Shown: positions 69 through 27,866, counted from the stretch's first letter. The stretch is 64,000 nucleotides of DNA from Candidatus Aminicenantes bacterium (GCA_963715635.1 OY970261.1:1086438-1150437); one strand, 5' to 3'. A program made the numbers and translations. The notes: generated by a model from the letters alone, not told the origin.

Positions 69-138
69 CCGGGGTCAAACCTACTCATTACGCCCGCTCC
101 CCAAGAGAATTATGCGTAACGAGTAGGTTTGACCCCGG
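69..138. repeat. REP-like palindromic element, copy 1 (arms ccggggtcaaacctactcattacgc / gcgtaacgagtaggtttgaccccgg, ~20 nt loop)
   Basis: Near-perfect inverted repeat read directly from sequence. It starts 5 nt after the stop (143) of minus gene 143..793. The same arms recur at 2588..2654 and 27801..27866. On the transcribed minus strand the hairpin is followed by a U5 run (reverse complement of aaaaa at 63-67). Confidence 0.8.
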
Positions 139-142
139 TTTC

Positions 143-793
143 CTAGAGAAACATTTTCTTGAAGACGTTGACCAGTCCGAGGGCGTAATCCACTTGCGTC
201 AGCGGCGCCTTGCTTTTCTGGACGATCTTGGTGAAGCGGCCGTCTTTGTTGCTGTCCTTAGTGACGATGATGCAATCGGCGAAAGGAGCGACGGCATCGA
301 TCATCCGTTCATTGTCGCTTCCCGCGGGACCCCGGGTGGCCTCGCCGCCGACGTGCACGGCGATGATGAAAATCTTGTTCTTCTTGCAATAATCCACGAG
401 TTTTTTCAGCCGCGCTTCTTCCGCATCCACGGTCAATCCCGAGGCACCCATCCCTTTCAGGCTGGCACCGATGGCGAAGATGACCGTCTTGTAGGGACTT
501 CCCTTGGCGAACTTGGCCGTGTCTGTATTGATTTCCACATGGAATCCTTCGGCGGGTTGTTTGCCGGCCAGGCCCACGCCGGCCTGGAGCATTTCAACGG
601 TCGGGACGTTGCAGTAGTCATACTTGATGCCCGCTTCCTCCATGACAATATTGAGCGCATTGACATCATTGCTCTGCCCTGCGGACGTGGTCAGCACGGG
701 CAGTTGAGCTTTGGGCGGCGCCTGAGATGAGCCTGTTTGGCACAAGAAAGCAAACATACCAACCATCAAAAACACCATCGCTTTTGTTTTCAT
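143..793 (-). CDS. secreted hypothetical protein (216 aa) with N-terminal signal peptide; fold/family not recognised
   Basis: ORF 143..889 trimmed to ATG at 793, which is preceded by GGAGGAG (reverse complement of 798-805). The protein begins MKTKAMVFLMVGMFAFLCQTGSS, a signal peptide. No confident family assignment. Confidence 0.6.
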   Translation of the reverse strand: MKTKAMVFLMVGMFAFLCQTGSSQAPPKAQLPVLTTSAGQSNDVNALNIVMEEAGIKYDYCNVPTVEMLQAGVGLAGKQPAEGFHVEINTDTAKFAKGSPYKTVIFAIGASLKGMGASGLTVDAEEARLKKLVDYCKKNKIFIIAVHVGGEATRGPAGSDNERMIDAVAPFADCIIVTKDSNKDGRFTKIVQKSKAPLTQVDYALGLVNVFKKMFL

Positions 794-831
794 ATCTCTC
801 CTCCTCTTGGACGCAGGATTTTCTTGTCTTT

Positions 832-2562
832 TTATCTCTGGGGCTCCGGCTCCATCAGGACGTCGATCATCCGGACGGCCTTTTGCCATGTCTGAGAATA
901 GGGTTTGCCGCGTCCCCGGTTTCGTTTTTCGCTGTCATAAAAGCCGAAATGATTGTATTTTACGAGCAGTTTGTCTCCGAGCTCCCACCAAGCATTCACG
1001 ACTTTGTTGGCATTGTCCAGGCAGTACTTGGTCAGGAATTCGCGGGCCTTGACCGGGCTTTTGGCATAGAGGTCCTGGGCCTTTTTATCGATCTCGGCGG
1101 TCCTCTGGACGGCGCCGGCTTCGTGCTCGAGCTGTGCTTTTTTCACATCTTCGATGGCTTCGGCATAGACGACCTGAGTGTGGAAATCGACGTAATCGAA
1201 GGCCCAACGCGCCGAGCCGCGGTTGAACTCAAAGTGATCGCCGATGCCGAAGGATTTGGGAAGGTCGTTGATCCCGGCATAGAGCGGCACGTAGCAGGAA
1301 GTGTCCTGAGGGCCGAACGCCAGCCACTCGATTCCTCCAATCGGGTCGGGCAGCCACCCTCGGCACTGGACCAGACTGGTGTATTCGACGTTGGAAACCC
1401 CGATCAGCCGCGTATTCCGCCAGTAGTTGGGATTCTGGTACGGACCGCCGCGGATGCCCTTGACGGGGTCGAAGATCGTCCCGTAGCTCTTGTCACGGGT
1501 CATGTTCATGACGTCCTGGACGGAGATCTTATTGTCGGGCTTGACCGAGAACGGCAGGTCCATGTTCTGGATCTCGGGGCCGAGCTTCAGCGACGGGGCA
1601 ACGATGTTGAAGAACCGCCATATGCGTGACGCCCGACCCTGGCTGCTCATGGCGCTTCCCTCGTGTGGGGAGTAGGCCCGCTTGAAGCTAAAGGGCTTGC
1701 CGCTGGCCGGGTCGTAGAGCTTCTGCTCGACGGCGAAGGAAATGACGTTCGGCGAAGCCATGAAGAAATCTTTATTGTTGAGATCGATCTCGCCGATGCG
1801 CGATTCATTGGGACATACGCTCACGTTTTCATCGGGGATGCGCTGGGCGCACCAGACGGCGCCCGGCTTTCCGGTCTCCGGGGTCCACAGCGGGCCCGCG
1901 GGCATGATCTCGAAAACCCAGACTTCGCTAGGGTCGGAGACGGCCAGCATCTCGCCGCCGTCGTTGAACCCGTAGCCGAATTTCTCGGCGGCATCGCCCA
2001 TGACCTTGATCGCCTCGCGGGCGGTCTTCGACCGCTCCATAGCCAGGAGCGTCAGCATGGTGATGTCGAACTTCGCCGAGGGGGTGTTATTGTCGAGCTT
2101 GCGGACAGCGCCGATCGTCGATTCCGAGATCGCCATCTGATTTTCGTTCATATAACCGAACATGCCGCGATGGTAGGCGAAGGTGTGGGGGATTTCCGGG
2201 ATCTCGAGGCCCGCGAAGTCCTTTTTGTAAAGCTCCCACTTCAAGCCTTCTTTGGGCGGCCAAGTCTTGTACTGGTTGATGTGATAGATTTTTCGCGTGG
2301 AGCCGGGCTTGTGGTCCGCCGCGGGAATATGGCCCCACGTCCAGTCGCACGTCCCGCAGTCACAGGTATGGGTGGTCATGGTCGAGCCGTCCACGGACGC
2401 CCCTTTCGCGATCATGATGACTGTGCACGCGTCATGGCCAAGGTCCGCCATGAGGTCATCTTGGGCGGTGTTGGCCTTGCGGGGGCCGATGAATGCAAAA
2501 GCGCCAACGAGCAAAAGGGCTGTCAGCAGGCCGATCAAGGCCCATCGTTGTTTTAATAACAT
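832..2562 (-). CDS. peptidase C69 family dipeptidase (Ntn-hydrolase), secreted, 576 aa
   Basis: Signal peptide followed by DACTVIMIAKGASVDGSTM, the N-terminal Cys nucleophile block typical of C69 dipeptidases. ~60% identical paralog immediately downstream. Confidence 0.8.
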   Translation of the reverse strand: MLLKQRWALIGLLTALLLVGAFAFIGPRKANTAQDDLMADLGHDACTVIMIAKGASVDGSTMTTHTCDCGTCDWTWGHIPAADHKPGSTRKIYHINQYKTWPPKEGLKWELYKKDFAGLEIPEIPHTFAYHRGMFGYMNENQMAISESTIGAVRKLDNNTPSAKFDITMLTLLAMERSKTAREAIKVMGDAAEKFGYGFNDGGEMLAVSDPSEVWVFEIMPAGPLWTPETGKPGAVWCAQRIPDENVSVCPNESRIGEIDLNNKDFFMASPNVISFAVEQKLYDPASGKPFSFKRAYSPHEGSAMSSQGRASRIWRFFNIVAPSLKLGPEIQNMDLPFSVKPDNKISVQDVMNMTRDKSYGTIFDPVKGIRGGPYQNPNYWRNTRLIGVSNVEYTSLVQCRGWLPDPIGGIEWLAFGPQDTSCYVPLYAGINDLPKSFGIGDHFEFNRGSARWAFDYVDFHTQVVYAEAIEDVKKAQLEHEAGAVQRTAEIDKKAQDLYAKSPVKAREFLTKYCLDNANKVVNAWWELGDKLLVKYNHFGFYDSEKRNRGRGKPYSQTWQKAVRMIDVLMEPEPQR

Positions 2563-2587
2563 GTTGGTCCTCCAACCGTAGTATAAT

Positions 2588-2654
2588 CGGGGTCAAAGCT
2601 ACTCATTACGCACATTCCCCATCTGATTTATGCGTGATGAGAAGCTTTGACCCC
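2588..2654. repeat. REP-like palindromic element, copy 2 (arms ggggtcaaagctactcattacgca / tgcgtgatgagaagctttgacccc)
   Basis: Inverted repeat 23 nt before the stop codon of minus gene 2677..4401 on the plus coordinate (stop at 2677). Same family as 69..138. The stem carries compensatory change AACCT/AGGTT -> AAGCT/AGCTT. Confidence 0.8.
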
Positions 2655-2676
2655 ATTCTAGACCCCGTTCTAAACA

Positions 2677-4401
2677 TTATCGTCGTTCCTCGGTTTCTGT
2701 ATAAACGTCCATCATCCGCACGGCTTTTTGCCAGACCTGCGGCAATGCCTTGCTGCGGGCCCGGCTCCTTTTCTCGGGATCATAGAAACCGAAATGATTG
2801 TATTTGACGAGCAGCCTGTCGCCGAGATCCCACCAGGCCGCCACCACCTTGTTGGCGTTGTCCAGGCAATAATTTGTCAAAAATTCGACCGCCTTGGCCG
2901 GGCTTCTAGTATAAAGCTCCTGGGCCTTCTTATCAATTTCTGCAACTCGGGTCAACGCGCCGACTTCCCATTCCTGCTGGGCCTTTTTTATATCTTCGAT
3001 CGCTTCCGAATAGGCGACCTGGGCGTGATAATCCGTATAATCAAATGCCCAGCGGGCCGAGCCCCGGTTGAGCTCCCAGTGGTCGCCGATATTGAACGAT
3101 TTTGGCACGGCGGTGACGCCGGCATAGAACGGCATGTAGCACGATGTGTCCTGAGACCCCCAGGCGAGCCAGACGATCCCGCCGATGGGAGCGGGCAGCC
3201 AGTTCCGACATTGGGTAACCGTCGTGTATTCGGCTCCTCTTGTCCCGATTGTCCGCGTCCCTCCGTAATAGTTGGGGTTGGCATAAGGGCCTCCCCGGAT
3301 GCCCTTCACAGGGTCAAGCGACGTCCCCTGGCACTTGTCGCGCGTAAAAGTCATGACGTCCAGGGCCGAAATCTTTTTGTCCGGCTTCACGGAGAAGGGC
3401 AGGTCCATGTTGGGCGTTTCGGGCGGCAATTTTTGGGACGAGGCGACGAGGTCAAAAAAGCGCCAGAGCCGAGACCTCCCTCCGCTAGTGGCCGCGCTTC
3501 CCTGGGCAGGTGAATAGGCCCTTTTCCAGCTGAAGGGCTTGCCGCTGTTAGGGTCGTACAAACCGTTTTCCACAGCGCAGGAGAGGACGTTCGAGGATGC
3601 CATAAAGAGGTCGGGATTGTTGAGGTTGACTTCGCCGATGCGGGACTCGTTCGGGCAGACGCTGACCTGGTCATCGGGAATCCGGTGGGCGCACCAGACG
3701 GCGCCCGGCTTTCCGCTCTCCGGCGTCCACAGCGGGCCGACGGGTATGATCTCGAAATCCCAGACTTCTTTCGCGTCGGCCACGGCCAGCATCTCACCGC
3801 CGTCGACAAAACCGTATCCATATTTTTCGGCCAGGGAGCCCATAAGCTGAATGGCTTCTCGCGCCGTCTTCGACCTCTCCATGGCCAGGAGGGAGAGCAT
3901 GGTGATGTCCATTTTGGGGGCCGATGTCGAATTGCTGATCTTGCGCTGGTTCCCGATGGTCGATTCGCCCATAGCCAGCTGCTGGTCGTTCATATAGCCG
4001 AAGACGCCGTGGACATAGCCGTAAGTGTGGGCCGGTTGGGGAAGTTCCAGGCCCGAATAATCTTTTTTAATCATATCCCACTTCAGCCCTTCTTTGGGCG
4101 GCCATGTCCGCATCTGGGAAATGTGGTAGATCTTGCGCATTTCGCCCGGCTTATGATCGGCGGCGGGCACATGGCGCCAAGTCCAGTCGCAGATGCCGCA
4201 GTCCGCCGTGTGTGTGGCCATGACCGACCCATCGGTAGAGGCATCTTTCCCGACCATGATGACCGTGCAATTGTCGGAGGAAATGATGACGTTGAACGAC
4301 TCAGTGTCTTTGCTTTTTAAAAAAGAAAATGTCAGAAATGATCCAATGCTTAGGATGAACACGAATGCCAAGAGAATTATTAGTGTTTTCTTATTTGACA
4401 T
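2677..4401 (-). CDS. peptidase C69 family dipeptidase, paralog 2, secreted, 574 aa
   Basis: Signal peptide followed by DNCTVIMVGKDASTDGSVM. Colinear similarity to 832..2562 over full length. Confidence 0.8.
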   Translation of the reverse strand: MSNKKTLIILLAFVFILSIGSFLTFSFLKSKDTESFNVIISSDNCTVIMVGKDASTDGSVMATHTADCGICDWTWRHVPAADHKPGEMRKIYHISQMRTWPPKEGLKWDMIKKDYSGLELPQPAHTYGYVHGVFGYMNDQQLAMGESTIGNQRKISNSTSAPKMDITMLSLLAMERSKTAREAIQLMGSLAEKYGYGFVDGGEMLAVADAKEVWDFEIIPVGPLWTPESGKPGAVWCAHRIPDDQVSVCPNESRIGEVNLNNPDLFMASSNVLSCAVENGLYDPNSGKPFSWKRAYSPAQGSAATSGGRSRLWRFFDLVASSQKLPPETPNMDLPFSVKPDKKISALDVMTFTRDKCQGTSLDPVKGIRGGPYANPNYYGGTRTIGTRGAEYTTVTQCRNWLPAPIGGIVWLAWGSQDTSCYMPFYAGVTAVPKSFNIGDHWELNRGSARWAFDYTDYHAQVAYSEAIEDIKKAQQEWEVGALTRVAEIDKKAQELYTRSPAKAVEFLTNYCLDNANKVVAAWWDLGDRLLVKYNHFGFYDPEKRSRARSKALPQVWQKAVRMMDVYTETEERR

Positions 4402-4603
4402 ATCTAAACTCCATCATCTGGGGACGCATATAGGATTCACTAGATGTCCCTGATTTTTTCCTGCCCCCGCCGAGATTTTTTTCGAGGACAATACCTTGGG
4501 GCGGGTGGCATGGCATATTCCCCGCACGCCCGCTTTAAGGATTGCTCCTAATGAGTTCATCGCCAAAGGCTCCATGGAAAGGAGGCAGAGAGCGAAGCGA
4601 CCG

Positions 4604-4638
4604 TTGGAGGGAAACCCATGCCAAGGGTTTCCCTCCAA
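4604..4638 (-). terminator. perfect 14-bp stem hairpin (TTGGAGGGAAACCC-atgccaa-GGGTTTCCCTCCAA) 56 nt 3' of gene 4694..5857
   Basis: Read directly. No U-tract follows, so it may be a factor-dependent terminator or an RNA-stability hairpin. Confidence 0.4.
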
Positions 4639-4693
4639 GAGTGTCCGACAGGACCCGCCCCGCCGCCCGTCCGAGAATAAAATGCGCTATTTC

Positions 4694-5857
4694 TCACTCG
4701 TAATAAACGCTTTTCGGGTCGGCCTTCGCCGGGTCGTTGAAATAGTGCCCCACGCCATTCTGGACGAGGTCCGCATACCGAGGGATGCCCTGAAGCCGGA
4801 TGGGCTGGTCCGGGTTCTTCTTGGAATATTGACGCATGATTTCGAGAGCGACGGAGCAATGTTGGCCGACACGCTTCTCCATCGGCCAGCCCTTCTCGTC
4901 ATACGGGACGAACAATTTTTTCTTCTTGGATAGGCTCAGCAAAAATGGGTCCTTGCCGTCCAGAAGCAGTTTGACCGTTTTGGGTCCGGTCGGCTGGTCG
5001 AGGAAGGGGATGGGAGCTTCCATGAGGAAGGGCAGCGTGTCGGAAAAATCGCCGATCTCCCTGTGGGAAAGGCCATGGAATCCGGAGGGAGACGGCTCGA
5101 CATGGTTGTCGAAGCCTTCCATGGCTTTGACGGTCATCGCCGTCAAGGTGGCGATCTTCGCGGATTTGTCGGGCGCGACGATGCAGTTCGTAACGGGGAA
5201 CATGGTCTCCGCGCCATGCATGTCCATGGCGATGTTCATTTTGTCCTGCCTCATCATCTGCATGGCGGCGTAGGTCACGCGTTCCATGAGAGCGCCGTGG
5301 GGCCGCCCCGGCCACGTGCGGTTGGTGTTCCGGATATCGAGATAGGAGAGGAGCTGTCTGTCGGGATAATGGATGTAGACGTCCGGGTCGGGCCACTGGT
5401 CGAGCGGAGACGCGTCGCGATTGCCCATGCGGAACCGCACGCGGCCCCATTCGGTGGGGATATCGAAATACAGCGGATAGCCGTCGCCGGGCTTAGTGTT
5501 GCGGCTGGCGCTGTTGTTGAATTCCGGGATGATGTAGAGGGTCCCTTTTTCGACGACCGCGTTCTCGATCATGATGATGGTCGCCAGCAGTCCCGCCGGC
5601 TCGTTGGCATGGGTGTTGGCCATAATCAACACTTTCCCCCCTGGCTCTTTGCCTTCGAGGATGAAGACATCGGTGTCGGCCATCGTCCCTTTCAAGCTGG
5701 GCACGAATTCGCTCAGCTTGATGACTTTTGTCACGCCGGGCCCCGCGATGACAGGAATCTGAAAATGCCGATGTTTGTAGAGAGGAAGGCCTCCGAGAAT
5801 GCTCACAGCCAGAAGGATCAGGACCAGCGCCGATTTGATTCTCGATTCGCGGGACAT
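4694..5857 (-). CDS. succinylglutamate desuccinylase/aspartoacylase (AstE/AspA) family zinc deacylase, N-terminal membrane anchor/signal, 387 aa
   Basis: LIMANTHANEPAG matches the GGxHGNE zinc-binding block of the AstE/AspA (M14-like) family. Hydrophobic N-terminus. Confidence 0.7.
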   Translation of the reverse strand: MSRESRIKSALVLILLAVSILGGLPLYKHRHFQIPVIAGPGVTKVIKLSEFVPSLKGTMADTDVFILEGKEPGGKVLIMANTHANEPAGLLATIIMIENAVVEKGTLYIIPEFNNSASRNTKPGDGYPLYFDIPTEWGRVRFRMGNRDASPLDQWPDPDVYIHYPDRQLLSYLDIRNTNRTWPGRPHGALMERVTYAAMQMMRQDKMNIAMDMHGAETMFPVTNCIVAPDKSAKIATLTAMTVKAMEGFDNHVEPSPSGFHGLSHREIGDFSDTLPFLMEAPIPFLDQPTGPKTVKLLLDGKDPFLLSLSKKKKLFVPYDEKGWPMEKRVGQHCSVALEIMRQYSKKNPDQPIRLQGIPRYADLVQNGVGHYFNDPAKADPKSVYYE

Positions 5858-5869
5858 CTTTTTTCCTTT

Positions 5870-6025: not shown

Positions 6026-6037
6026 GGCATCTCTCCT

Positions 6038-7351: not shown

Positions 7352-7468
7352 GCCTTCAGCCTAGCAGCCATTTTATATTTTGCTTTTCCCAATAGTCAAG
7401 CCCGAACCCGTTCCGCTTCTGATTTGACCCGTGTTCCTATTTTCATTATATTACTCCGCGCAACCGCC

Positions 7469-17223: not shown

Positions 17224-20067
17224 ATGAGATTTTTTAAGAAAAACAGTCTGATGTTATTCTGCGTTGCGCTCATTTTTTTGGAGAGCAGCGAATTGCCGGC
17301 CGCCCAATCGGCTTCGGTGAAGCCTGTCGCGTTCGATTTAAAAGCAGGTCAGAATACGCAGCAATTTTTGCTGTTCAATGAACTCGTCCAGTGCACGATC
17401 TCTATTGAATCCAGCCGGCTCATTTCCGATGAGGTCAAAGCTCTTCCGCAATGGCTGTCTGCGTTCAACCCGTCCTCTGAGCTTACCGTTCAAACCGATG
17501 CCGATTTCTTGCTGGATGTGATGTGGACCGGCTGGACGGCGCCCGGCAAAGTGGACAATGCCGATAATCCCGCCGAACTGACTAAGCAGAATTTTCTGCT
17601 GACCGAGCATAAAATCCGCGAGCTGCAGGGTGGGGGCAAAGAGCTCGACCTTTTTTTCAGGGGCGTCCGCCGCATGCCGCTGGAGGTTTGTCTGACCTAC
17701 CGGCTCGAGCCGGATGCGTTTTTTGTTAAAAGAAAATTGGCCGTGCGGGCGGCCGCGCCTTCTCAAGCCGCCGCCTCTCGTCCAAGTGCCCGCGCCTCTC
17801 ACTTTCTTCGCTGGACCTGGCCGCGGCATGGGGTCATCCCAGGAAAGATCGATATCGTCAAGGCTGGCGGGTTCGGCCAGCCCTTCGCCTTTCAGACCGG
17901 CCCGGGCGGCTCATTTTTCGGCCTCGAGTATACGACATCAAATAATACCCTGCGCGCCCTGGACAATGGGAAAAGCGAGCTGGCCTGCGGGCAAGAGATC
18001 GGCCAGCTCATCGGCGATTCCTGGATTGAGAGCGAATGGGTCGTCGAAGCCCTTGCGCCCGAACCCTTTGTCAAAAAATGGTTCTGGAAATATGTGGACC
18101 GCATCCGTGTCGCCCCGCTCAAACCCTATATCCTTTACAACAGTTGGTACGACCTGAGGGCGCCGGAGTATGTGAAAAATCCGGAACGGAGCCTGACCGA
18201 AAAAAACCTCTTGACGACGATCGAATTTTTCCGGACACGGATGTTCGAAAAGCGAGGCTTGAGGCTGGATGCGTTTGTTTTGGATGACGGCTGGGACGTG
18301 TACCGGAGCGACTGGGTGTTGAATAAAGACCAGTTTCCTCGCGGTCTGACCCCTCTCGCCGAGGCGCTGAAGCCGATGGGGACGAGACTCGGCATCTGGT
18401 TCGGGCCGATCGGCGGGTACTCCAACCGGAACCTCCGCCTTGAATACATGAAATCACACGGCTATGAAGTCGTTGGCGATCAACTGTGCCTAGCCGGCAC
18501 AAACTATAAGGCGCTGCTCAAAAAGCGGACGACGGATTTTGTTCGCAACGACGGTGTCGGCTATTACAAGTGGGACGGCATTCAATTCTCGTGCAGCGAG
18601 CCCAACCACGGCCATCCCCAGGACATCTATTCGCGCCGCGCGGTGATGGAATCCTTGATCGAACTGGCCCGGGCCGTTCACGCGGAAAACAAGGATGCTT
18701 TTCTAAACGTCACCTCCGGCACCTGGCTCAGCCCCTGGTGGGTGAAATATGCCAATACCATCTGGATGCAGGGGTCGGACTACGGCTACGCGGATGTCCC
18801 TTCGATCAGCCTTAGGGACGGCGCGATTACCTACCGGGATTCTGTGCTTTATGACGGCCTGATCCACCAGGACTCCTGGTTCCCAATCGCCAACCTGATG
18901 ACTCACGGCCTGATCAAGGGGCACCTCCAAATGCTGGGCGGGAAGGAAGAAACCCTGGACAAATTCACGACTGAGGTGCTGCTCTATTTCGCCCGCGGCA
19001 TCGAGATGTGGGAGCTCTACCTCTCGCCGGACGTGCTGACGGAGGCTGAGTGGGATGCCCTGGCCCAAGGGATCCGCTGGGCCAAGGACCGCTTCGACAT
19101 CTTGAAATGGACTGACATGGTCGGCGGAGACCCGGATAAATTCGAGCCGTACGGCTTTGTCCATTTCGCCGGGACAAAGGGAATTCTGGCTGTTCGGAAT
19201 CCCGGAATGGAACCCAATTCCCTTTCCATCAGATTGGGCGTTTCTTATGGCCTGGCGGGTGATGCGAAAAACTTGGTCCTGGAGCGTGTTTATCCGAATC
19301 GATGGATATCTCCGCTGCTCTACCAGGCAGAGTCAAATGTTGAGCTTTCGCTCGAGGGCTATGAAACGGCCATCTATGAGGTCTATCCCTTGGAGGAGGC
19401 CAAAGAGCCCCTTGTCGCCGGGACGATTTTTGATGCGGCTATGAGTGGAAAAGACCGCTATAGGATTCAATGTTTCGATGCCGGCCAAGGAAGCAAGCTG
19501 TTCAACCCGCAGCTTGTCCGCTCCTTAAGATTCAGGGGAGCTCGGGTCGATCCTGAGCAATTCAAATTGGCCCAGCGGCCTATACTGAAGGCGGTCGCCG
19601 GGACGTCCTTTCAAGGGCAGGCCGGCCAGGGCCGGTATGTTGTTGGGGTGAAATTTATTCTTCAGTCGCCCGCCAAAGAGGGAGCCCTTGCTTTTTTGCT
19701 GCAGCAGTCCGGCGAGCCAACGCCCAACCGGAGGGACCCGGATGTCACGATTTTGTTCGACGGAAAAAAGGCCGAGGTCAAGACCGAAAATCAAAAGGGG
19801 AGCTGGAGTTGGTTCAAGATTAAGGTAAAGCCGGGGGCGCATTCGGCCCGGCTCGAGATCTCTCTTTCAAAGGATATGCAGGATTTTATGGGGAAGACAT
19901 CGGCTTGGCTGGTCGCGCAAGAAAAGCCGCAACCCGAAGAAATCCAGCTAGATTTAAGAAACGAGATCACTTTGTCGCGGGCGATGCCGCCGCTGCCGTT
20001 TCCCGTCGGAGTGATTGTCAAAAATTATAAGATCGGGGAGACGGCCATAGAAATCAATCGGCAATAA
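17224..20067 (+). CDS. large secreted glycoside hydrolase, GH-D clan (GH27/GH36-like alpha-galactosidase) catalytic core with extra N- and C-terminal domains, 947 aa
   Basis: FVLDDGWD motif (DDGW is typical of GH27/GH36 TIM barrels). Signal peptide. AAGGAGG RBS. Confidence 0.5.
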   Translation: MRFFKKNSLMLFCVALIFLESSELPAAQSASVKPVAFDLKAGQNTQQFLLFNELVQCTISIESSRLISDEVKALPQWLSAFNPSSELTVQTDADFLLDVMWTGWTAPGKVDNADNPAELTKQNFLLTEHKIRELQGGGKELDLFFRGVRRMPLEVCLTYRLEPDAFFVKRKLAVRAAAPSQAAASRPSARASHFLRWTWPRHGVIPGKIDIVKAGGFGQPFAFQTGPGGSFFGLEYTTSNNTLRALDNGKSELACGQEIGQLIGDSWIESEWVVEALAPEPFVKKWFWKYVDRIRVAPLKPYILYNSWYDLRAPEYVKNPERSLTEKNLLTTIEFFRTRMFEKRGLRLDAFVLDDGWDVYRSDWVLNKDQFPRGLTPLAEALKPMGTRLGIWFGPIGGYSNRNLRLEYMKSHGYEVVGDQLCLAGTNYKALLKKRTTDFVRNDGVGYYKWDGIQFSCSEPNHGHPQDIYSRRAVMESLIELARAVHAENKDAFLNVTSGTWLSPWWVKYANTIWMQGSDYGYADVPSISLRDGAITYRDSVLYDGLIHQDSWFPIANLMTHGLIKGHLQMLGGKEETLDKFTTEVLLYFARGIEMWELYLSPDVLTEAEWDALAQGIRWAKDRFDILKWTDMVGGDPDKFEPYGFVHFAGTKGILAVRNPGMEPNSLSIRLGVSYGLAGDAKNLVLERVYPNRWISPLLYQAESNVELSLEGYETAIYEVYPLEEAKEPLVAGTIFDAAMSGKDRYRIQCFDAGQGSKLFNPQLVRSLRFRGARVDPEQFKLAQRPILKAVAGTSFQGQAGQGRYVVGVKFILQSPAKEGALAFLLQQSGEPTPNRRDPDVTILFDGKKAEVKTENQKGSWSWFKIKVKPGAHSARLEISLSKDMQDFMGKTSAWLVAQEKPQPEEIQLDLRNEITLSRAMPPLPFPVGVIVKNYKIGETAIEINRQ

Positions 20068-20072: not shown

Positions 20073-20114
20073 GGGGACACGTACCGAATTCCAGAGAATT
20101 CGGAATATGTCCCC
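20073..20114. terminator. bidirectional terminator hairpin between convergent genes (GGGGACA..CCGAATTC-cagag-GAATTCGG..TGTCCCC)
   Basis: Only 54 nt separate the stops at 20067 (+) and 20122 (-). Hairpin followed by TTTT on the plus strand and U-rich on the minus strand. Confidence 0.55.
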
Positions 20115-20121: not shown

Positions 20122-21606
20122 TTACAGTTCTTTGACGTAGATGTTTCGGAAATATGGCGGAGAGATGCTGTCGTGGTTCTGGAGCCCGATGTAGCCCTCG
20201 AGGGCATAATCCTTGACCTTTCCGCCCGGCTTGGCATCCCAATCGAGGATCAATTTCCCGTTCAATTCGACCTTGAGGTGTTGGCCTTTGAACTCAATCT
20301 TGAAATGGTTCCATTCGCCGGTCGGCAGGGAGGCAGTCATCGTCGGCGCTTCGACATCATAGGCCGCCCCGGTCACATGGATTCCCTCGCCCGCGTCATA
20401 GATCTGGATCTCGAAGGAATGATAGATGTAGTCGTCGCTGGTCGGGACTTCGGGAACCCGGATAAAGATCCCCGAGTTCGTCTCCTCCGTCGAGCACTTG
20501 AAGTCGCACTCGAGAATGAAATCTTTATACTTCTTGCCGTACCAGAGCAGGCCCATGCCGCCCTGGCCTTTGAGCACGCCCGCCTTCGGATCGACCTCGA
20601 AGTAGCCCGGGCCGTAATGGTTCCAGCCGTGTTTTTCGTAGCGGCCGCCGGCCTTTCGAAAAATCTGCTCGTAGCCTTCGTAATAGGTGATGCTCTTGAC
20701 ATAGTCGATGCTTTTTTTAATGGCGGGGCTGGGGTTGGCGGCCTCTTTCTCGGCCTCGTATTCCATCGTCAGATATCCGTCATAGTCCTGCAGGGTCAGC
20801 TCGGCCAGGATGTCGTGCATGTTCGCTTTGCCGCTGCCCCAGGGGACGTCATCGGTAGCCGGCGGCGGGCCGTAGCCAGTGCGATCTTTCAGGTGGGTAT
20901 CGATGATCCGGCCTTCGAGGAGTCTCAACGCTTCGAGCGGGTTGTTCATGCCCCGCATCCAGTGCCCGGTGTCGGCGCATGAGCCGATGCACTCATCACG
21001 GCCCTTGACGTGGTCGTACACGGTCTCGGGCTTGGCATATTTGTTGGGCTCAGGATGGTTATGGATGGCGATCTGAATATTATATTCCTTGACCATCTTC
21101 TCAAGGAGCGTGAAGTCGTCGTCCGCGGGCTCGGTCACGATCGTCCGGAAGCCCATCTTTCGCGCGAAACTAAAGACTTTTCGCATGCTCTCCTCGGTTG
21201 TGCCGATGTCGCAGACGCCGTAGGCTACGATAGAAACGCCTGCTTCCTTGAGCTTGGCTTTGATTTTAGCTAGCTGCTCGTCCGTCAGGTTGTCGTCAAA
21301 CTTGACGTTCGGGAATTCCGCTCCCAGGGCCTGCCCCGGATACGCCTGGGCATATTCCACGCCGAGCTCTTTGAGTTTTGCCAGCGTCTCCAAGAAACTG
21401 AATCTCCGGTAGGACCAGCACTGCACGGCGATGGGAAATTTCTTGATCCGGACATCCTTATAATTTGTGCTCTCGACTTGTTTTTGGATCTCGGGCGAAA
21501 AATGGCGGATCTGCGGCGCCGCCGCCTGCTGGCCAGGCGCTATTTGAATTGCAAGAAATATTAGAAAAGGAACGGCCACAAATAGAATTAAAGATTTCCC
21601 TCTCAT
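20122..21606 (-). CDS. secreted fusion protein: sugar-phosphate isomerase/epimerase (xylose-isomerase-like TIM barrel) + C-terminal DUF1080 (3-keto-disaccharide-hydrolase fold), 494 aa
   Basis: N-terminal signal peptide. TIM-barrel blocks (IVAYGVCDIG, IAIHNHPE, DTGHWMRG). C-terminal GIFIRVPE...FEIQIYD...GYIGLQNHDS...FRNIYVKEL is classic DUF1080. Confidence 0.75.
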   Translation of the reverse strand: MRGKSLILFVAVPFLIFLAIQIAPGQQAAAPQIRHFSPEIQKQVESTNYKDVRIKKFPIAVQCWSYRRFSFLETLAKLKELGVEYAQAYPGQALGAEFPNVKFDDNLTDEQLAKIKAKLKEAGVSIVAYGVCDIGTTEESMRKVFSFARKMGFRTIVTEPADDDFTLLEKMVKEYNIQIAIHNHPEPNKYAKPETVYDHVKGRDECIGSCADTGHWMRGMNNPLEALRLLEGRIIDTHLKDRTGYGPPPATDDVPWGSGKANMHDILAELTLQDYDGYLTMEYEAEKEAANPSPAIKKSIDYVKSITYYEGYEQIFRKAGGRYEKHGWNHYGPGYFEVDPKAGVLKGQGGMGLLWYGKKYKDFILECDFKCSTEETNSGIFIRVPEVPTSDDYIYHSFEIQIYDAGEGIHVTGAAYDVEAPTMTASLPTGEWNHFKIEFKGQHLKVELNGKLILDWDAKPGGKVKDYALEGYIGLQNHDSISPPYFRNIYVKEL

Positions 21607-21818: not shown

Positions 21819-23069
21819 TTATTTCCCCTTTGGGTTCCACGTCCCTTTGGCCACGGCCGGCACGAACATGTCGAGACCCGGCGGTGGGAAGGGGATGGTG
21901 GTTTCCTTTTCCGCGCTCATGTAGGCCGTCATTAACAGCTCGGTGACATTGACGCCGTCGCTGAAATTCTCTTCCGGCCGCTTGCCCGCCAGGAACGACT
22001 GGACCATGTGGCGGTTTTCGGCGATGTAGCCGTACTCGGTCTCTTCGTTGGCCACCACCGGCATGAGCCCGATCTCGGCATTCTGTTTTTCGACCAGGTC
22101 TTCGCCCTCCTTGCCTATGACGTTTCGGCTGAAGAAGACTTTGAGCCCGGAATCCAGCGTGTTGATCTGCAACGAGTATTCCGGCCCCAGCAACTCCATG
22201 GTCAGCCGCAGGCCGGCTCCGATATAGCACCAGGACGTCGTCGTTTCGACGATGACCTTTTTTCCCTTTTTATCTTTATACTCCACGAGAGACCGGGCAA
22301 AATCCTCAGCCGGCCTCTTGAGATAGTCTGTCTTGCCGCCGCTGTTCTTAGCCAGGATCGCCGCATAGTGCGGCTCCTGCCATTTCAGGCAATTCATGTA
22401 GGCCGTGACGCTGACGGGCTTAAGGACATTGCGCGGCGCGCCGGGCGGCGTCAGCATGAACCGGGCCTCTTCGACCGAGTGGCACATCATATCGTTGAGC
22501 ACGCCGCCGCCCTGGAGCGTGCCCTCCCAGAACCAGGGCATGTGAGGCCCGCTGTGTTCCTCGGCGGCCCGGGCGAGATAGGGGGGACCGGATATGGCGG
22601 CGCCGCGTGCCCAGACGATTTCTTTTCCCCTGACGACGGCGGGCGCAAAGACCTGGTTTTCCAGGTAGCCGTCGAGGAGCTTGGCCTTCCTGGCCAGCTC
22701 GAGCATGCGCCGCGCTTCCTTGACATTTCGTCCCAGCGGTTTTTCGCAGGTGACGCCGACGAGCTCGCCCTTGCCCTTAAGGACCGCCTGGGCGATTTCC
22801 TCCATGACCTCGACGCGGGTGTAGTTGGGCGCACCGATCCAGAGCGCGTCAATGGCCGGGTCGGCGATCATATCCGTTATCGACTTATAGGGCTTTGCTT
22901 TGCCGACCTTGAGTTTCCGCGCCAGGGCGACGGCTTCACCCGCGCGTTTTTCGTCCGGGTCGAAAATGCCCAGGATGTCCGCGTCCCGGATGCCCACCCA
23001 GGATCGGATGTGAAAGCGAGCGATGAAACCGCCTCCGATAATCCCAATGCCTAAATATTTCTTTTTCAT
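21819..23069 (-). CDS. Gfo/Idh/MocA family NAD(P)-dependent oxidoreductase (candidate glycoside 3-dehydrogenase), 416 aa
   Basis: GIGIIGGGFIARFH Rossmann motif and EKP motif (VTCEKPLGRN). Real start MKKKYLG at 23069; the 687-aa ORF in the track is a spurious 5' extension. Confidence 0.8.
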   Translation of the reverse strand: MKKKYLGIGIIGGGFIARFHIRSWVGIRDADILGIFDPDEKRAGEAVALARKLKVGKAKPYKSITDMIADPAIDALWIGAPNYTRVEVMEEIAQAVLKGKGELVGVTCEKPLGRNVKEARRMLELARKAKLLDGYLENQVFAPAVVRGKEIVWARGAAISGPPYLARAAEEHSGPHMPWFWEGTLQGGGVLNDMMCHSVEEARFMLTPPGAPRNVLKPVSVTAYMNCLKWQEPHYAAILAKNSGGKTDYLKRPAEDFARSLVEYKDKKGKKVIVETTTSWCYIGAGLRLTMELLGPEYSLQINTLDSGLKVFFSRNVIGKEGEDLVEKQNAEIGLMPVVANEETEYGYIAENRHMVQSFLAGKRPEENFSDGVNVTELLMTAYMSAEKETTIPFPPPGLDMFVPAVAKGTWNPKGK

Positions 23070-23089
23070 AGTTAACCCCTTTTTTGTTA

Positions 23090-24310
23090 TTAAGCCTGCG
23101 CCGGCGTTTCGGCCGGGCCTTTCTTTTCCTTGAACAGCGCCACGAAGGCGACGGCACAGACAAGCGTCAGGACCGTCGGCACCCAGAAGACATTTCTCCA
23201 GTTCGTCACCTTTTCGACAGTGAAAAGACCCTGGATCCATCCCGAAAAATTGCTCCCGATGAAACTGCCGAGTCCCAGGATGATGACGGCAATCAAGCTT
23301 TGGGCCGAGGCGCGGATGTCCTTGGGCGCGATCATATCCACGTAGATATAGGCGGCCGTGAAGAAGAACACGTAGCAGAAGCCGTGGAGAGACAGCGAAG
23401 CGACGACCAGCCAGGCGGGCGTCCCGATGACGAAGATGATATAGCGGAGCGGCCAGGCCAGGACGCCAAGAACCATCGTTTTTTTGATGCCGTATTTGGG
23501 GAGGAAGTAGGGGAGGAGAAGGGCCATGACGAAGATTTCGGCAACCTGGGCGATGGTCATGACGCCTGAAAGCCAGGATTCGGTCACGCCGACTTTGGGC
23601 GAAGTGAGGAAAGGCGCCGTCAGGACATAATAGAATTGAAGCTCCGTGGCGACAATAAAAGCGATGATGGTGAAGACCAGGAAGTTCTTGTCCTTGAGCA
23701 TCTTGATGGCCTCCAGGAAAGCCCAGGGTTTGGCGCCTTCTTTTTTCGGCGGCGTATGCGGAAGCCCAAAGGCCAGGAACCCCATGATGACTGAGAAAAT
23801 GCCGGCCAGAAACAGCGTGTCTCCGTTGACGGCAATGGCCGAGACCGATTTGGCGGCCAGGCGCCATCCCACGAGCCCCCAACCCGCCGCAATCCAGCCG
23901 ATCGTTCCCCAGACCCGGATCTTGCCGAAATCCTTTTCCGAGTTTTGAAGATTAATGAAAGCGATGGAGTTCGTCAGGGCCAGCGTCGGCGCATAGATGA
24001 GGCAGTAAATGAACATCACCCAAATAATGGCCGAGTAGGATGCGACGGCCGAGCCCAGAACCAACAGGATGCCGCCGGCGATCTGCATGAAGGCGATCAC
24101 TTTTTGGGTGGGGAAGTAACGGTCGGCCAGCTGGCCGCCGATAAAAGGCGCGATGATCGTGGCGATCGGCAGCAAGCTGTAGATGAAACCGGCCTGGGGG
24201 CCGCTGAACCCCAGCGTATTGATCAAATAGGCCGAGAGCACCGGGAACCAGGAGCCCCAGATCGCGTACTCCAAGAACATCATGATGCCAAGGCGGAATT
24301 TTGCGTTCAT
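23090..24310 (-). CDS. MFS transporter, nucleoside:H+ symporter (NupG/XapB-like) family, 406 aa
   Basis: MNAKFRLGIMMFLEYAIWGSWFPVLSAYL resembles the NupG N-terminus. ATG 24310 preceded by GGAGG. 20 nt downstream of it sits the Gfo gene start. Confidence 0.65.
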   Translation of the reverse strand: MNAKFRLGIMMFLEYAIWGSWFPVLSAYLINTLGFSGPQAGFIYSLLPIATIIAPFIGGQLADRYFPTQKVIAFMQIAGGILLVLGSAVASYSAIIWVMFIYCLIYAPTLALTNSIAFINLQNSEKDFGKIRVWGTIGWIAAGWGLVGWRLAAKSVSAIAVNGDTLFLAGIFSVIMGFLAFGLPHTPPKKEGAKPWAFLEAIKMLKDKNFLVFTIIAFIVATELQFYYVLTAPFLTSPKVGVTESWLSGVMTIAQVAEIFVMALLLPYFLPKYGIKKTMVLGVLAWPLRYIIFVIGTPAWLVVASLSLHGFCYVFFFTAAYIYVDMIAPKDIRASAQSLIAVIILGLGSFIGSNFSGWIQGLFTVEKVTNWRNVFWVPTVLTLVCAVAFVALFKEKKGPAETPAQA

Positions 24311-24528
24311 ACCCTCCTTCCTTTTCATGAAGAATTCATTGGGGATGATAGGGCGAAGCCAAAAATATATAAATTTCGACGCTTTGTCAAATGGGCTCGG
24401 GGCAAGCGCTTCATTAAAGGAGAAGGGGGTCCTGTCGCCGACCAGCCCCATCATCCTCGCTGAAAAATTTGGGTATATATCCAGGACTGCTGAATTGACA
24501 GAATGTATCCCAAATTTTCGTCAGCTGC

Positions 24529-24569
24529 GGTGGCTGGGGCGCCCGGTCGGCGCCACCCCACTTTTTTTT
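24529..24569 (+). terminator. plus-strand intrinsic-terminator-like GC hairpin (GGTGGC..GGCGCC..GGCGCC..ACC) followed by T8, inside a divergent intergenic region
   Basis: Read directly: GC-rich self-complementary segment 24529-24559, then tttttttt at 24562-24569. No plus-strand gene ends upstream (the upstream gene is on the minus strand). Confidence 0.45.
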
Positions 24570-24683
24570 AATCGCGCATTGCCCCTCGCCCGACAAAAAA
24601 AAGAAAAAATGAATATTACACGCTCTAGTTTGACTTCGGATGGGAAAAATATTATGGTAGAGTCACGGCAGGCAATCACGGCT

Positions 24684-27600
24684 ATGAAATGCCCTCAGTG
24701 CCAGTTTGAAAACCCCGGAGACACCCGTTTCTGCGGCAGCTGCGGGGCACCCCTTCGTCCTTCCCAGGAGAGCGTCTCGGCCCGCACAGAAACCATGCAA
24801 ACTCCAAGAAAAGAACTCGCGTCGGGCAGCCTGTTTGCTGGCCGCTACCAGGTCATTGAAGAGCTGGGAAAAGGCGGCATGGGCAAAGTCTACAAAGTAT
24901 TGGACAAAGATCTGGATGTGAAAGTCGCCCTCAAACTCCTGAAGCCCGAGATCGCCTCCGATGAAGAGACGATTGCCCGCTTCCGGAACGAGCTCAAAGT
25001 CGCCCGCACCGTCACCCACAAAAATGTCTGCCGGATGTACGATTTCGGGAGGGCCGAGGGCACGTACTTTATCACGATGGAGTATGTCCCCGGCGAGGAC
25101 CTCAAGAGCACGATAACTAGAGTCGGGCAGTTGAGTGTAGGGAAGACGATCGCCGTTATCAAGCAGGTCTGTGAGGGATTGGCCGAAGCCCACCGGCTGG
25201 GTGTTGTCCATCGGGACCTCAAGCCCCAGAACATCATGCTCGATCGAGAGGGAAACGCCCACATCATGGACTTCGGGATCGCCCGGACCTTTCGGACGAA
25301 AGGCCTCACGGGCGGCAACGTGATGATCGGCACGCCCGAATACATGTCCCCGGAACAGGTCGAAGGGAAGGACATCGACACGCGCTCGGATATCTATTCT
25401 CTCGGCATCATTCTTTTCGAAATGCTGACAGGAAGAATTCCTTTTGAGGGTGAATCTGTTTTAAGCGTTGCCCTCAAACAGGAAACCCAGCCGCCCCCTG
25501 ATCCGAGAGCAATTAACAGCCAGATTCCGGAAGACTTCAGCCGCCTGATTCTCAAGTGCCTGGAAAAAGAAAGAGCCAAGAGATTCCAGAGTGCTGAAGA
25601 AGTATTGGCTGAGCTGGCCAAGATTGAAAAAGGCGTCCCCACGACAGAGCGGGTGATTCCCCGACCCACGCGCCTCGCCTCGAGGGAAATCACGGTCAAA
25701 TTTACCCTGAAAAAGCTATTTGTTCCCGCCCTCATTGTCATAGCGGTTGTTGCGGCAGGGCTGTTCGCCCTCTTCTTGATCCCCAAAAAAGAGCCGGCTA
25801 GACATTCCATTGCCGTCATCAGCTTTAAAAATCAAACGGGCGACAAGGCCTTCGACTATCTCCAGGAAGCCATTCCCAACCTTCTGATCACGAGCCTCGA
25901 GCAGTCCAAATATCTGCGGGTGACGACATGGGAAAGGATGAAGGACATCCTCAGGCAGTTGGGCAAAGACGCCGGAGGCCTTATCGATGAGGATCTTGGG
26001 TTCGAGCTCTGCCGAAAGGAGGGCATCGAGGCGATCGTTATCGGAAGCTTCGTCAAGGCCGGAGAGATGTTCGCCACGGACACCAAAGTCCTGGAAGTGG
26101 AGACGAAAAAGCTCGTCAGAAGCGCCGGCGCCAGGGGCGAAGGCGTCGGAAGCATTCTTAAAAGCCAGATCGACGATCTGAGCCGAAATATCTCGCGGGG
26201 CATCGGATTATCGGAGCGCAAGATTGCCGCGGCAGCCCCGGCCAGGATCATCGATCTCACCACCAATTCGATGGAAGCCTATAACTATTTTTTGAGGGGC
26301 CGGGACGATTATGAAAAGTTTTTTTATCTTGACGCCCAAAAATTTTTGAAGAAGGCCGTCGAGCTTGACCCGACCTTTGCCGTGGCTTGCCTCTACCTGG
26401 CCAGGGCCAGCGCAAATTTGGTTGATTTCAAGGCCCGGGATGAAGCTCACGAGATCGCCAAAAAATATTCTCAGAAAGCCACTGAGAAAGAGAGGCTTTA
26501 CATCGAGGCCTCTTACGCCAACATTATTGAAAGGAACCCGGAGAAGAGATTCCGCATCCTCTCCGAATTGGTCAAAAAATTTCCTGAAGAAAAATATGCC
26601 CATTCCGAGCTGGGTGACTATTATGAAGACCAGGGGCAATATCGGGAAGCCATCGAAGAGCTCGACAGAGCTATTGCGCTTGACCCGAATTTCGGCTTTG
26701 CCATCAATCAAGCCGCCTATGACTATGCGCGGACGGGCAATATTGAAAAGGCCGTCGAATACTTCGAGCGTTATGCGTCCGTCAATCCTGGACTCCCCAA
26801 TCCCATAGACTCCATTGCCGAGTTGAACCTGCGCATAGGAAAACTTGATGAGGCCATCGCGAAATACAAGGAAGCCTTGGCCATTAAGCCCGATTTTTAT
26901 CGCTCTTGCGAGGGGCTCGCTTATATTTTTGCCCTGAAGGAAGATTACGCGGAGACGATGAGCTGGGTTGAGCAATTTGTCGAGGGGGCGCCGACTCCAT
27001 CGGCGAAATGGGAAGGAATTTGGCTGAAAGCTTACTTTGACTATTTCCTCGGCCGTTGGGATCGATCTCTGGCAGAATACCTTGCCTTGAAAAAGCAGGC
27101 TGAAAAGGCGGAATTTTCGTATGGGGTCGCAACGATAGACTGGATCACAGGATATATTTATTCGGATCTCGGGCAATTCGACCTAGCCCGAAGATCCTTC
27201 AAAGGATGGATCGATTATAATTTCAAGCAGAATCCGTCCACCAGGACTTCTGATGCGGCGCGAGACGGTTTCCAGTGCGCATGGGTAGACCTTAGACAAG
27301 GGCGAATAGAGGCCGCGAAAGCTAAGCTTAAGGAAATTGAATCCCTCCTGCCTGCAGTGGATTCAGCCAATAAAAAGGATATGACATTTCTTTATGAGCT
27401 ACTCGGTACGGAGGTTTGGCTGGCGGAGGGTTCCATCGATAAAGCCATCGCCCTTGCCGAAAAAATCGTTCCTTTGGACCCGCCGCTGATGCAAACGGCA
27501 AGCCTGGCCTTCACCAACCAGCCCTTCCTCAAAGACGTTTTGGCGCGTGCTTACTGGAAAAAAGGCGAGTTGGACAAAGCCATCTCGGAATACAAACGGC

Positions 27601-27797
27601 TAATGACCATTGATCCTAAAAACCAGCTCCGTTTCCTCATCCATCCGCTGTATCATTACAGGCTGGGCCGGATCTATGAAGAAAAAGGCGAGAAGGCCCA
27701 AGCCCGGGAGCAGTATCAAAAATTCCTTGAGCTTTGGAAAGACACCGACCCCGGCCATCCCGAGATCGCGGACGCAAAGAAGCGCCTGGCGGGATAA
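24684..27797 (+). CDS. Ser/Thr protein kinase (Hanks-type) with N-terminal zinc-ribbon, one TM helix and C-terminal TPR-repeat sensor domain, ~1038 aa
   Basis: CPQCQFENPGDTRFCGSCG zinc ribbon, GKGGMGKVYK glycine loop, HRDLKPQNIML catalytic loop, DFGIAR, TM (LFVPALIVIAVVAAGLFALFLI), then TPR-like repeats. Start ambiguous (24609/24654/24684) because the frame is open back to 24282. Confidence 0.8.
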   Translation: MKCPQCQFENPGDTRFCGSCGAPLRPSQESVSARTETMQTPRKELASGSLFAGRYQVIEELGKGGMGKVYKVLDKDLDVKVALKLLKPEIASDEETIARFRNELKVARTVTHKNVCRMYDFGRAEGTYFITMEYVPGEDLKSTITRVGQLSVGKTIAVIKQVCEGLAEAHRLGVVHRDLKPQNIMLDREGNAHIMDFGIARTFRTKGLTGGNVMIGTPEYMSPEQVEGKDIDTRSDIYSLGIILFEMLTGRIPFEGESVLSVALKQETQPPPDPRAINSQIPEDFSRLILKCLEKERAKRFQSAEEVLAELAKIEKGVPTTERVIPRPTRLASREITVKFTLKKLFVPALIVIAVVAAGLFALFLIPKKEPARHSIAVISFKNQTGDKAFDYLQEAIPNLLITSLEQSKYLRVTTWERMKDILRQLGKDAGGLIDEDLGFELCRKEGIEAIVIGSFVKAGEMFATDTKVLEVETKKLVRSAGARGEGVGSILKSQIDDLSRNISRGIGLSERKIAAAAPARIIDLTTNSMEAYNYFLRGRDDYEKFFYLDAQKFLKKAVELDPTFAVACLYLARASANLVDFKARDEAHEIAKKYSQKATEKERLYIEASYANIIERNPEKRFRILSELVKKFPEEKYAHSELGDYYEDQGQYREAIEELDRAIALDPNFGFAINQAAYDYARTGNIEKAVEYFERYASVNPGLPNPIDSIAELNLRIGKLDEAIAKYKEALAIKPDFYRSCEGLAYIFALKEDYAETMSWVEQFVEGAPTPSAKWEGIWLKAYFDYFLGRWDRSLAEYLALKKQAEKAEFSYGVATIDWITGYIYSDLGQFDLARRSFKGWIDYNFKQNPSTRTSDAARDGFQCAWVDLRQGRIEAAKAKLKEIESLLPAVDSANKKDMTFLYELLGTEVWLAEGSIDKAIALAEKIVPLDPPLMQTASLAFTNQPFLKDVLARAYWKKGELDKAISEYKRLMTIDPKNQLRFLIHPLYHYRLGRIYEEKGEKAQAREQYQKFLELWKDTDPGHPEIADAKKRLAG

Positions 27798-27800
27798 AAT

Positions 27801-27866
27801 CGGGGTCAAACCTACTCATTACGCACAATTGGCCAGGGGAATATGCGTAACGAGTAGGTTTGACCC
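27801..27866. repeat. REP-like palindromic element, copy 3 (opposite orientation to copies 1 and 2)
   Basis: Begins 4 nt after the kinase stop (27795-27797). Arms identical to copy 1. The loop ACAATTGGCCAGGGGAATAT gives the same GGGGA(A/G) loop motif on the mRNA strand as copies 1 and 2. Confidence 0.8.

Follow-up and report, generated by a model that had tools for sequence, protein, structure and literature searches.

The stretch of DNA analysed here, called the window, comprises 64,000 nt of Candidatus Aminicenantes bacterium (GCA_963715635.1 OY970261.1:1086438-1150437), and all positions refer to the whole window unless they follow the label of a compared locus (L-number). It carries three hairpins that belong to a family of 66-bp palindromes, named family A. 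On the evidence of sequence comparison these hairpins are probably lineage-specific, high-copy, interspersed DNA repeats resembling repetitive extragenic palindromic (REP) sequences and the REP doublets that form hairpins (REPINs), and not a strand-specific RNA motif; in kind, family A is probably a REP/REPIN-like element that is non-autonomous. The family persists almost only between genes, with a strong preference for the first few nucleotides past a stop codon and for gaps where two genes converge. Furthermore, its copies evolve as palindromes: the arms stay complementary, the loops invert, copies decay, half-copies and arrays are formed, and a second repeat, family B, inserts into them. 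The copies of the window are the following.

Copy 1: 71..136, minus strand; 23-nt arms at 71-93 and 114-136, 20-nt loop.
Copy 2: 2589..2654, minus strand; arms at 2589-2612 and 2631-2654.
Copy 3: 27802..27867, plus strand; arms at 27802-27825 and 27844-27867.

With up to 3 mismatches allowed, the 23-nt arm has 6 matches in the window against 0.00 expected from 100 shuffles. Each copy, with a loop of 18-20 nt, folds at -40 to -58 kcal/mol on either strand (z-scores -7.5 to -11.9). The family covariance model, CM R1, detected no copy in the window beyond these three, and neither the window nor five related loci matched Rfam at the gathering score. Copy 1 has its G-type loop (UUGGGGAGCGG) on the minus strand, where the model scores 86 bits (73.1 on the plus strand) and the fold is -54.9 kcal/mol; the palindrome reaches 69-138 via CC/GG and can be extended to 66-141 at 93% complementarity. 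Copy 2, which scores 76.5 bits on the minus strand and 63.5 on the other, has arms of the AAAGCT/AGCTTT variant with two uncompensated positions, A·A (mismatch) and T·G (wobble), and its orthologous copies are found in L033 and L058. Copy 3 carries its G-type loop (CCAGGGGAAUAU) on the plus strand (90 bits, 75.6 on the other strand), has an A·C mismatch on the mRNA strand, and has orthologous copies in L031 and L051. The original prediction had set three palindromes directly after stop codons, only the first of them followed by a U-tract. Its positions agree with ours within 1-2 nt, the gaps to the stop codons are 6, 22 and 4 nt for copies 1, 2 and 3, and the sequence after the hairpins bears out that among the window copies the U-run (GGAUUUUUG) follows copy 1 only.

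A wider search for the arm consensus, which had been proposed together with that prediction, revealed a large family. The arm pattern found at least 75 loci in representative genomes, and all listed ones come from two metagenome-assembled genomes (MAGs), JAPKZH01 (Candidatus Aminicenantes bacterium, lake sediment) and CAZIDN01 (titled "uncultured Eubacteriales"); the scan of metagenomes added at least 120 further loci. All family counts given here are of elements among the matches listed at these loci, at least 195 from both scans. At least 109 paired elements in the genome set and at least 178 in the metagenome set, at least 287 together, were counted besides solo arms. The arms are GGGGTCAAACCTACTCRTTACGC and the loop follows the consensus ACAATTCTCCAGGGGAAGAT or its reverse complement; since the loop sequence is conserved, the loop has an orientation. 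Most arm columns are more than 90% conserved and 96% of the arm positions are base-paired. Arms of 23 nt with a spacer of 20 nt occur in 197 of the 287 copies among the matches listed; minor classes have loops of 19-22, 26-27 or 4 nt, and long inserts are present in a small number of copies. The arms GGGGTCAAAGCTACTTTTTACGC / GCGTAAAAAGTAGCTTTGACCCC characterise a sub-family, the variant to which the double change of copy 2 belongs. The tetranucleotide GTAG falls within the 3' arm (GAGTAGG), the 5' flank is variable and A/T-rich, and a single arm, which is without a palindromic core, folds only to -0.6 to -2.7 kcal/mol with 3 bp. An inner hairpin of the loop (TTCTC/GGGAA) was considered and rejected on account of weak pairing and unconvincing covariation.

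The window represents a third related genome, with 81-91% nucleotide identity over long syntenic stretches, and the named matches of its DUF2207 protein all belong to Aminicenantes/Aminicenantales. CAZIDN01 loci (e.g. L004, L035, L054) are 90-97% nucleotide-identical to JAPKZH01 and have the repeat family in common with it; the label "uncultured Eubacteriales" is probably wrong. Three Aminicenantes genomes of more distant relationship, with 62-67% amino-acid identity at DUF2207, yielded no family member to CM R1 in a sample of about 75 kb; it comprised L077 and L078, which are syntenic, as well as the spacer between kinase and DUF2207 in L076, where there is no hairpin. The arm pattern gave 0 matches in the viral_contigs scan. 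Within Candidatus Aminicenantes, family A is found in a single clade. A literature search for the exact arm sequence returned no prior description, and Rfam was without a match.

The position of the elements relative to genes was analysed with a purpose-written, hexamer-trained gene caller in two sets, the genome loci together with the window (set 1) and the metagenome loci (set 2). Not one of 109 standard elements in set 1 and one of 162 in set 2 lies within a called gene (1/271 overall). The contexts and distances were as follows.

Tandem contexts: 53 in set 1, 81 in set 2.
Convergent contexts: 25 in set 1, 40 in set 2 (65 together).
Divergent contexts: 16 in set 1, 22 in set 2.
Median distance from arm to facing stop: 12 nt in set 1 (54/114 at 10 nt or less), 13 nt in set 2 (74/170 at 10 nt or less; 96 at 15 nt or less).
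Median distance from arm to facing start: 96 nt in set 1, 91 nt in set 2.
Tandem elements nearer the stop vs the start: 41 vs 12 in set 1 (p=8e-5), 62 vs 19 in set 2 (p=2e-6), 103 vs 31 in total.

The bias towards the stop codon was reproduced in two independent sets. The distance after the stop codon has its mode at 3-6 nt, and 14 elements were found within 10 nt of a stop against 4.7 expected from uniform placement with a 40-nt pre-start exclusion (P about 5e-5); the bias exceeds promoter avoidance. That the element supplies its own stop was ruled out, since all three stop codons adjoin it (TAA 27, TGA 16, TAG 11) at variable spacers, and the 5' arm is without a stop in any frame. It should be emphasized that stop-adjacent placement is a strong tendency, not a rule: the claim that the palindromes stand at gene 3' ends holds for the whole family as a stop-proximal bias, but about 17% of the copies are situated between divergent genes, e.g. 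in L044, flanked by two divergent promoter-like sites.

In the window, as judged by the strand scores of CM R1, all three copies have the GGGGA-type loop on the mRNA strand of the upstream gene, and it had been proposed that the orientation follows that gene. True of these three copies, the proposal fails for the family. A single gene stands upstream within 40 nt at n=112 copies, which are the informative ones; their G-type loop falls on the mRNA strand vs the opposite strand in 22 vs 22 cases in set 1 and 30 vs 38 in set 2, altogether 52 vs 60, and the agreement of the three window loops is a coincidence of 1-in-4 to 1-in-8. If the sense RNA were under selection, G·U should outnumber A·C on the mRNA strand; the counts were 25 vs 20 in set 1 and 25 vs 32 in set 2, and the sum of 50 vs 52 argues against such selection. 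On the exit side, 5 or more T in 8 nt were observed at 5/53 and 15/81 tandem copies and at 14/50 and 29/80 convergent sides, and the T-richness tracks the A-rich spacer of the convergent neighbour. The covariation of the arms is thin, with double changes at three arm pairs that are mostly sub-family markers. The compensatory change reported for copy 2 (C10G with G59C) is a real double change, but it is an inherited sub-type and makes a weak argument for covariation: it is a recurrent variant of the family, with G-C at that pair in 7/76 distinct copies, and the orthologues of copy 2 in both sister genomes have C-G at pair 10/59.

The comparison of orthologous copies, defined by matching flanks on both sides (40 groups across all data), revealed how the loops change. 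The loop was inverted relative to the flanks in 12 of the 40 groups. In L019/L035 and in L032/L054 the loops are exact reverse complements between identical arms with aligned flanks, and 6/10 examples of flipped loops match as reverse complements at 95-100% identity, a level reached by 0.9% of random loop pairs, which average 65%. Near-identity of the flipped loops shows that they were inverted in place and not inserted independently. Inversion in place acts at the level of DNA and explains the 50:50 orientation; its cause is likely recombination or replication template-switching between the 23-bp arms. In the first 20 orthologous pairs identity amounts to 96.6% in the arms, 89.8% in the loops and, gaps included, 72.6% in the flanks of 150 nt. 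Turnover of the copies was also seen: in L033, opposite copy 1 of the window, the left arm is lost, L051 has an additional half-copy, L003 has a tandem array of arm-plus-loop units, and L044 has a family A element (4235-4307) where the window has an unrelated segment of 198 nt (24417-24614). This segment includes a terminator-like hairpin followed by T8 (GGGGCGCC..GGCGCCACCCCACTTTTTTTT, about 24536-24570), and both variants are bounded by ATTA.

With regard to the mode of spread, no excess of direct repeats that would indicate a target-site duplication was found for k = 2-6 beside the arms or for k = 3-4 at offsets up to 11 nt, which argues against a DDE transposase. A palindrome extending into the variable flanks, which would have amounted to covariation, was discarded: there was no excess over shuffled partners, and a 4-nt extension was present in only 8/108 copies vs 3 expected. 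No parent insertion sequence (IS) with the same ends was found among 20 genes bracketed by elements or lying beside solo arms, a small part of any genome.

Several results weigh against a simple spreading repeat. The E. coli TnpA-REP protein, its sequence verified against PDB 4ER8, was used as query in tblastn and phmmer searches of 0.54 + 0.82 Mb (1.36 Mb) of related loci, as a check for a REP-associated tyrosine transposase (RAYT), and none was found; with no credible match in the small genome fraction sampled this is a weak negative. Marginal matches in L008 and L026 proved to be antisense open reading frames (ORFs) within other genes. The 20 bracketed or arm-adjoining genes are, according to Pfam, ordinary enzymes, regulators or toxin-antitoxin pairs. 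Within the loop, the positions AATT and CAGGGGAA are conserved and the adjacent positions are variable. Elements are in excess within 10 nt of a stop, most often at 3 nt, which is more than tolerance alone would give and points to targeting or selection. The conservation of the arms needs either purifying selection or concerted evolution between arms or copies, and leaves room for some host-level function. Finally, close relatives offered no clean empty site: the search for DUF2207 homologues gave relatives of 67% identity or less, a locus-specific metagenome scan for empty sites at site C gave 0 matches, and the spacer of L076 (CTATAAAATC|AAAATTATC) looks like site C without an element but comes from too distant a relative to decide the matter. 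As there is no clean empty site, the mobility is inferred from the distribution of the copies and was not observed.

A hairpin selected by the host irrespective of orientation, as a bidirectional terminator, insulator, 3'-end stabiliser or brake on translation termination, with multiplication secondary, seems unlikely to us, though it deserves consideration. The tight placement against stops at 3-6 nt speaks for it, as do the 25 and 40 copies in convergent gaps, often with 2-8 nt per side, the identity of orthologous arms (96.6%) vs flanks (72.6%), the presence of unrelated hairpins at equivalent positions of the window (20073-20114 and 4604-4638), and the ribosome stalling that PMC12306157, summarising Liang et al. 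2015, reports for E. coli REPs at most 15 nt from a stop. However, a U-tract on the exit side is present at only 5/53 and 15/81 tandem copies, a loop of 20 nt on a stem of 23 bp departs widely from what is normal for terminators, some copies have decayed or are absent from orthologous sites, and about 17% of them are located between divergent genes. Moreover, relatives of conserved gene order showed no member of the family in the roughly 75 kb sampled, so the genes there can do without family A. A strand-specific RNA element, oriented with the upstream gene and offering a GGGGA(A/G) loop to an RNA-binding protein or termination factor, is very improbable. The location of all three G-type loops of the window on the mRNA strand and the conservation of the motif CAGGGGAA across the family would suit it; against it stand the orientation of 52 vs 60 in 112 copies, the inverted loops in 12/40 orthologous groups, the 50 G·U vs 52 A·C on the mRNA strand, the 16 and 22 copies between divergent genes that have no facing gene 3' end, and the absence of matches to any Rfam family. 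The RNA-level function that the original prediction had derived from the common GGGGA loop is contradicted by the same counts and by the mostly absent U-tract. It had named the lack of an orientation bias as evidence to the contrary, and no such bias was found; the positional bias holds. Its fallback, a REP/MITE-like palindrome at 3' ends (MITE, miniature inverted-repeat transposable element), is the reading favoured by the evidence.

Other kinds of mobile DNA have also to be weighed. Terminal inverted repeats, small size, high copy number and intergenic location are what a classical MITE would show, that is, a deletion derivative of an IS with a DDE transposase and terminal inverted repeats of 23 bp; but there is no flanking direct repeat at any offset (k = 2-6), no IS with these ends and no transposase in 1.36 Mb, and the near-perfect palindrome over the whole arm is unlike IS ends, so that we see hardly any chance for this origin. 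Least credible appear recombination or uptake sites, either similar to the attC of integrons or paired DNA-uptake sequences doubling as terminators. The consensus of the attC core is GTTRRRY/RYYYAAC, from which the GTTTGAC/GTCAAAC of the arm differs by one mismatch, and the elements stand directly after ORFs. Nevertheless, the copies are scattered on both strands among ordinary metabolic and regulatory genes and not in cassette arrays of the same orientation, the arms pair perfectly, with none of the extrahelical bases that are usual in attC (no genome-wide search for intI was made), and single arms are essentially never within genes, unlike uptake sequences. A further suggestion, which we regard as rather doubtful, is a new type of hairpin element inserted by a putative enzyme at a place set by the end of the ORF (any stop, mode 3-6 nt, no sequence-specific target, no duplication), with in-place loop inversion at a rate comparable to 5-10% flank divergence. 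If this were true, and if stop-adjacent hairpins modulate translation termination or mRNA decay throughout the genome, a lineage-wide regulatory layer would have arisen from a mobile palindrome in an uncultivated phylum.

According to the REP/REPIN-like reading that we prefer, the family would have multiplied within this lineage, and the spread may have been achieved by single-strand, hairpin-recognising transposition of the RAYT or IS200/IS605 type or by recombinational copying. Where an element is transcribed, in either orientation, the 3' untranslated region would gain a hairpin of -40 to -58 kcal/mol. By analogy this would most likely act as an orientation-independent barrier to 3' exonucleases or to read-through, and an element starting at most 15 nt past the stop may hinder the terminating ribosome as E. 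coli REPs do. The best-supported view is that RNA-level consequences of family A, if any, are independent of orientation.

Family A is itself a target of another repeat. Family B, the second interspersed repeat, is about 96-102 nt long (..GAGTTCATCGCC..GGCAGAGAGCGAAGCGACCG TTGGAGGGAAACCC-loop-GGGTTTCCCTCCAAGAGTGTCC) and has about 30 copies in the compared loci. In several loci the loop of family A holds one or two tandem family B copies, inserted each time between TCC and CAGGGG and in both orientations (L098 12733-12900; L119 3140-3307 and 4603-4872; L193 499-666 and 4434-4704; L102 261-429; L125 2112-2280; L174 8753-8921; L137 1464-1720). About 12 of the roughly 30 family B copies are in family A loops, and these loops account for far below 1% of the DNA. 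The window has a family B copy (4552-4646; core of the palindrome 4604-4638) that is 81% identical to the consensus from related loci and is situated in the spacer separating the peptidase C69 gene from the AstE-like gene.

Some further repeats and look-alikes were recorded. A third palindromic repeat (GTCATTGCGAGGCAC..GTGCCGTGGCAATCTC.. / ..CGCTCGCGATGAC) stands inside or beside family A units (L003 5030-5140; L150 1289-1530), and a conserved, GC-rich, structured-looking insert of 237 nt is placed between degenerate family A arms in a divergent region (L098 10754-11036, L119 1161-1443); this insert had no Rfam match at E <= 0.1. In the sub-family with AAAGCT...TTTTTACGC arms, outer GGGGTCAA and/or TTGACCCC 6-10 nt beyond the arms form a nested palindrome (L005 2962, L003 5248, L063 1759, L064 2597, L042 7007, and also window 2661-2666); at copy 2 of the window GACCCC is situated 6 nt past the right arm. 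These outer motifs may reflect nested insertion or a longer composite unit. An unrelated hairpin of 42 nt (20073-20114, -25 kcal/mol, z = -5.8) occupies a convergent gap of 54 nt in the window, between genes at 17224-20067 (+) and 20122-21579 (-), a type of position often taken by family A elsewhere. The arm-like 19/23 match at window 28406-28428 (also L031 2079-2101 and L051 2301-2323) is a coincidence within DUF2207 coding sequence, where it encodes WDKPTHN: WDKPT is conserved in distant DUF2207 homologues without the repeat family, so the match is not an element.

The genes adjoining the three copies of the window are listed below.

143..889, minus strand: DUF6305 gene; TAG stop at 143-145, with a gap of 6 nt to copy 1; our own gene call starts at 697.
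832..2562, minus strand: second peptidase C69 paralogue; its start and Shine-Dalgarno sequence (GGAGG) are 13-26 nt from the other side of copy 2.
2677..4401, minus strand: peptidase C69 gene, from ORF and Pfam; stop 22 nt from copy 2.
24684..27797, plus strand: Ser/Thr protein kinase with TPR repeats; TAA stop 4 nt from copy 3.
27935..29797, plus strand: DUF2207 membrane protein gene; starts 67 nt past copy 3.

Copy 2 alone separates the tandem C69 paralogues at 832-2562 and 2677-4401, the downstream Shine-Dalgarno sequence being about 13 nt from the arm. An exact-product look-up for the peptidase C69 gene returned no record. The kinase start at 24684 is that of the original prediction; our gene caller places it at 24795, and the longest ORF begins at 24282.

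In this work a REP/REPIN-like family from Aminicenantes, for which no prior description was found, is added to the known repeats, and the hugging of stop codons known from E. coli REPs is shown to recur, in quantified form, in an unrelated element. The in-place loop inversions are a clear case in nature of a spacer inverting between short inverted repeats, and because of them the orientation of the loop is uninformative about transcription. Inversion in place and the tight spacing to the stop are the features most worth following up. In annotation, family A should be masked as repeats and its copies should not be called small RNAs or terminators. Several loci end at an arm, so the 23-nt arms are likely breakpoints in MAG assemblies.

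Among known systems, family A resembles the REPs and bacterial interspersed mosaic elements of Enterobacteria and Pseudomonas, which are likewise high-copy, extragenic and hairpin-forming. The hugging of stops is shared with REPs: about half of the facing stops of family A are within 15 nt, and for E. coli PMC12306157 reports earlier work in which 260/496 REPs were placed within 15 nt of a stop, where they stall ribosomes. The GI doublets of P. fluorescens, which are REP doublets, have A/T-rich flanks (PMC3337134), as family A has. REPs are defined as a palindromic unit of 20-50 nt after a conserved tetranucleotide, usually GTAG (PMC8266576). In contrast to this arrangement, with GTAG 5' of the palindromic unit, family A is a single 66-bp palindrome with a conserved 20-nt loop; REPs are furthermore associated with a tnpA-REP (RAYT) gene flanked by the repeats (REPtron), and no such gene was found in the DNA sampled here; their hosts belong to a different phylum than the host of family A (Aminicenantes / Acidobacteriota). 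The insertion sequences IS1397 and ISKpn1 insert into REP loops, and the use of the REP loop as a target of mobile DNA resembles the reception of family B by the loop of family A.

REPINs also consist of two inverted repeats around a short spacer that form a long, near-perfect hairpin in many copies per genome, and they share with family A the restriction to a lineage, the singlets or half-copies as decay products and the classes of spacer length. Each REPIN arm holds its own imperfect palindromic core (PMC3337134), whereas the 23-nt arm of family A has none. REPIN spacers are highly variable, unlike the family A loop, which is about 65-90% conserved, and REPINs are mobilised by RAYTs, none of which was found with family A in the DNA sampled. 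The Correia elements (NEMIS) of Neisseria are short inverted repeats beside genes which are co-transcribed and can be terminators or RNA-processing sites. They resemble family A as short gene-adjacent inverted-repeat elements, but they are 100-155 bp long, duplicate a TA target and have a site for integration host factor, whereas family A has 66 bp and no duplication. With intrinsic terminators family A shares the GC-clamped hairpin directly past the stop, and 65 of its copies are convergent. Intrinsic terminators have a short GC-rich stem, a loop of 3-8 nt and a U-tract directly 3' of the stem, whereas family A has a stem of 23-24 bp, a loop of 20 nt and mostly no U-tract, and at least 287 copies of it have nearly identical sequences. 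Family A fails the defining tests of a DDE MITE (no duplication), of an intrinsic terminator (loop size, U-tract) and of attC. Judged by its sequence features, it is a new REP/REPIN-like family, though not demonstrably a member of REPs or REPINs themselves.

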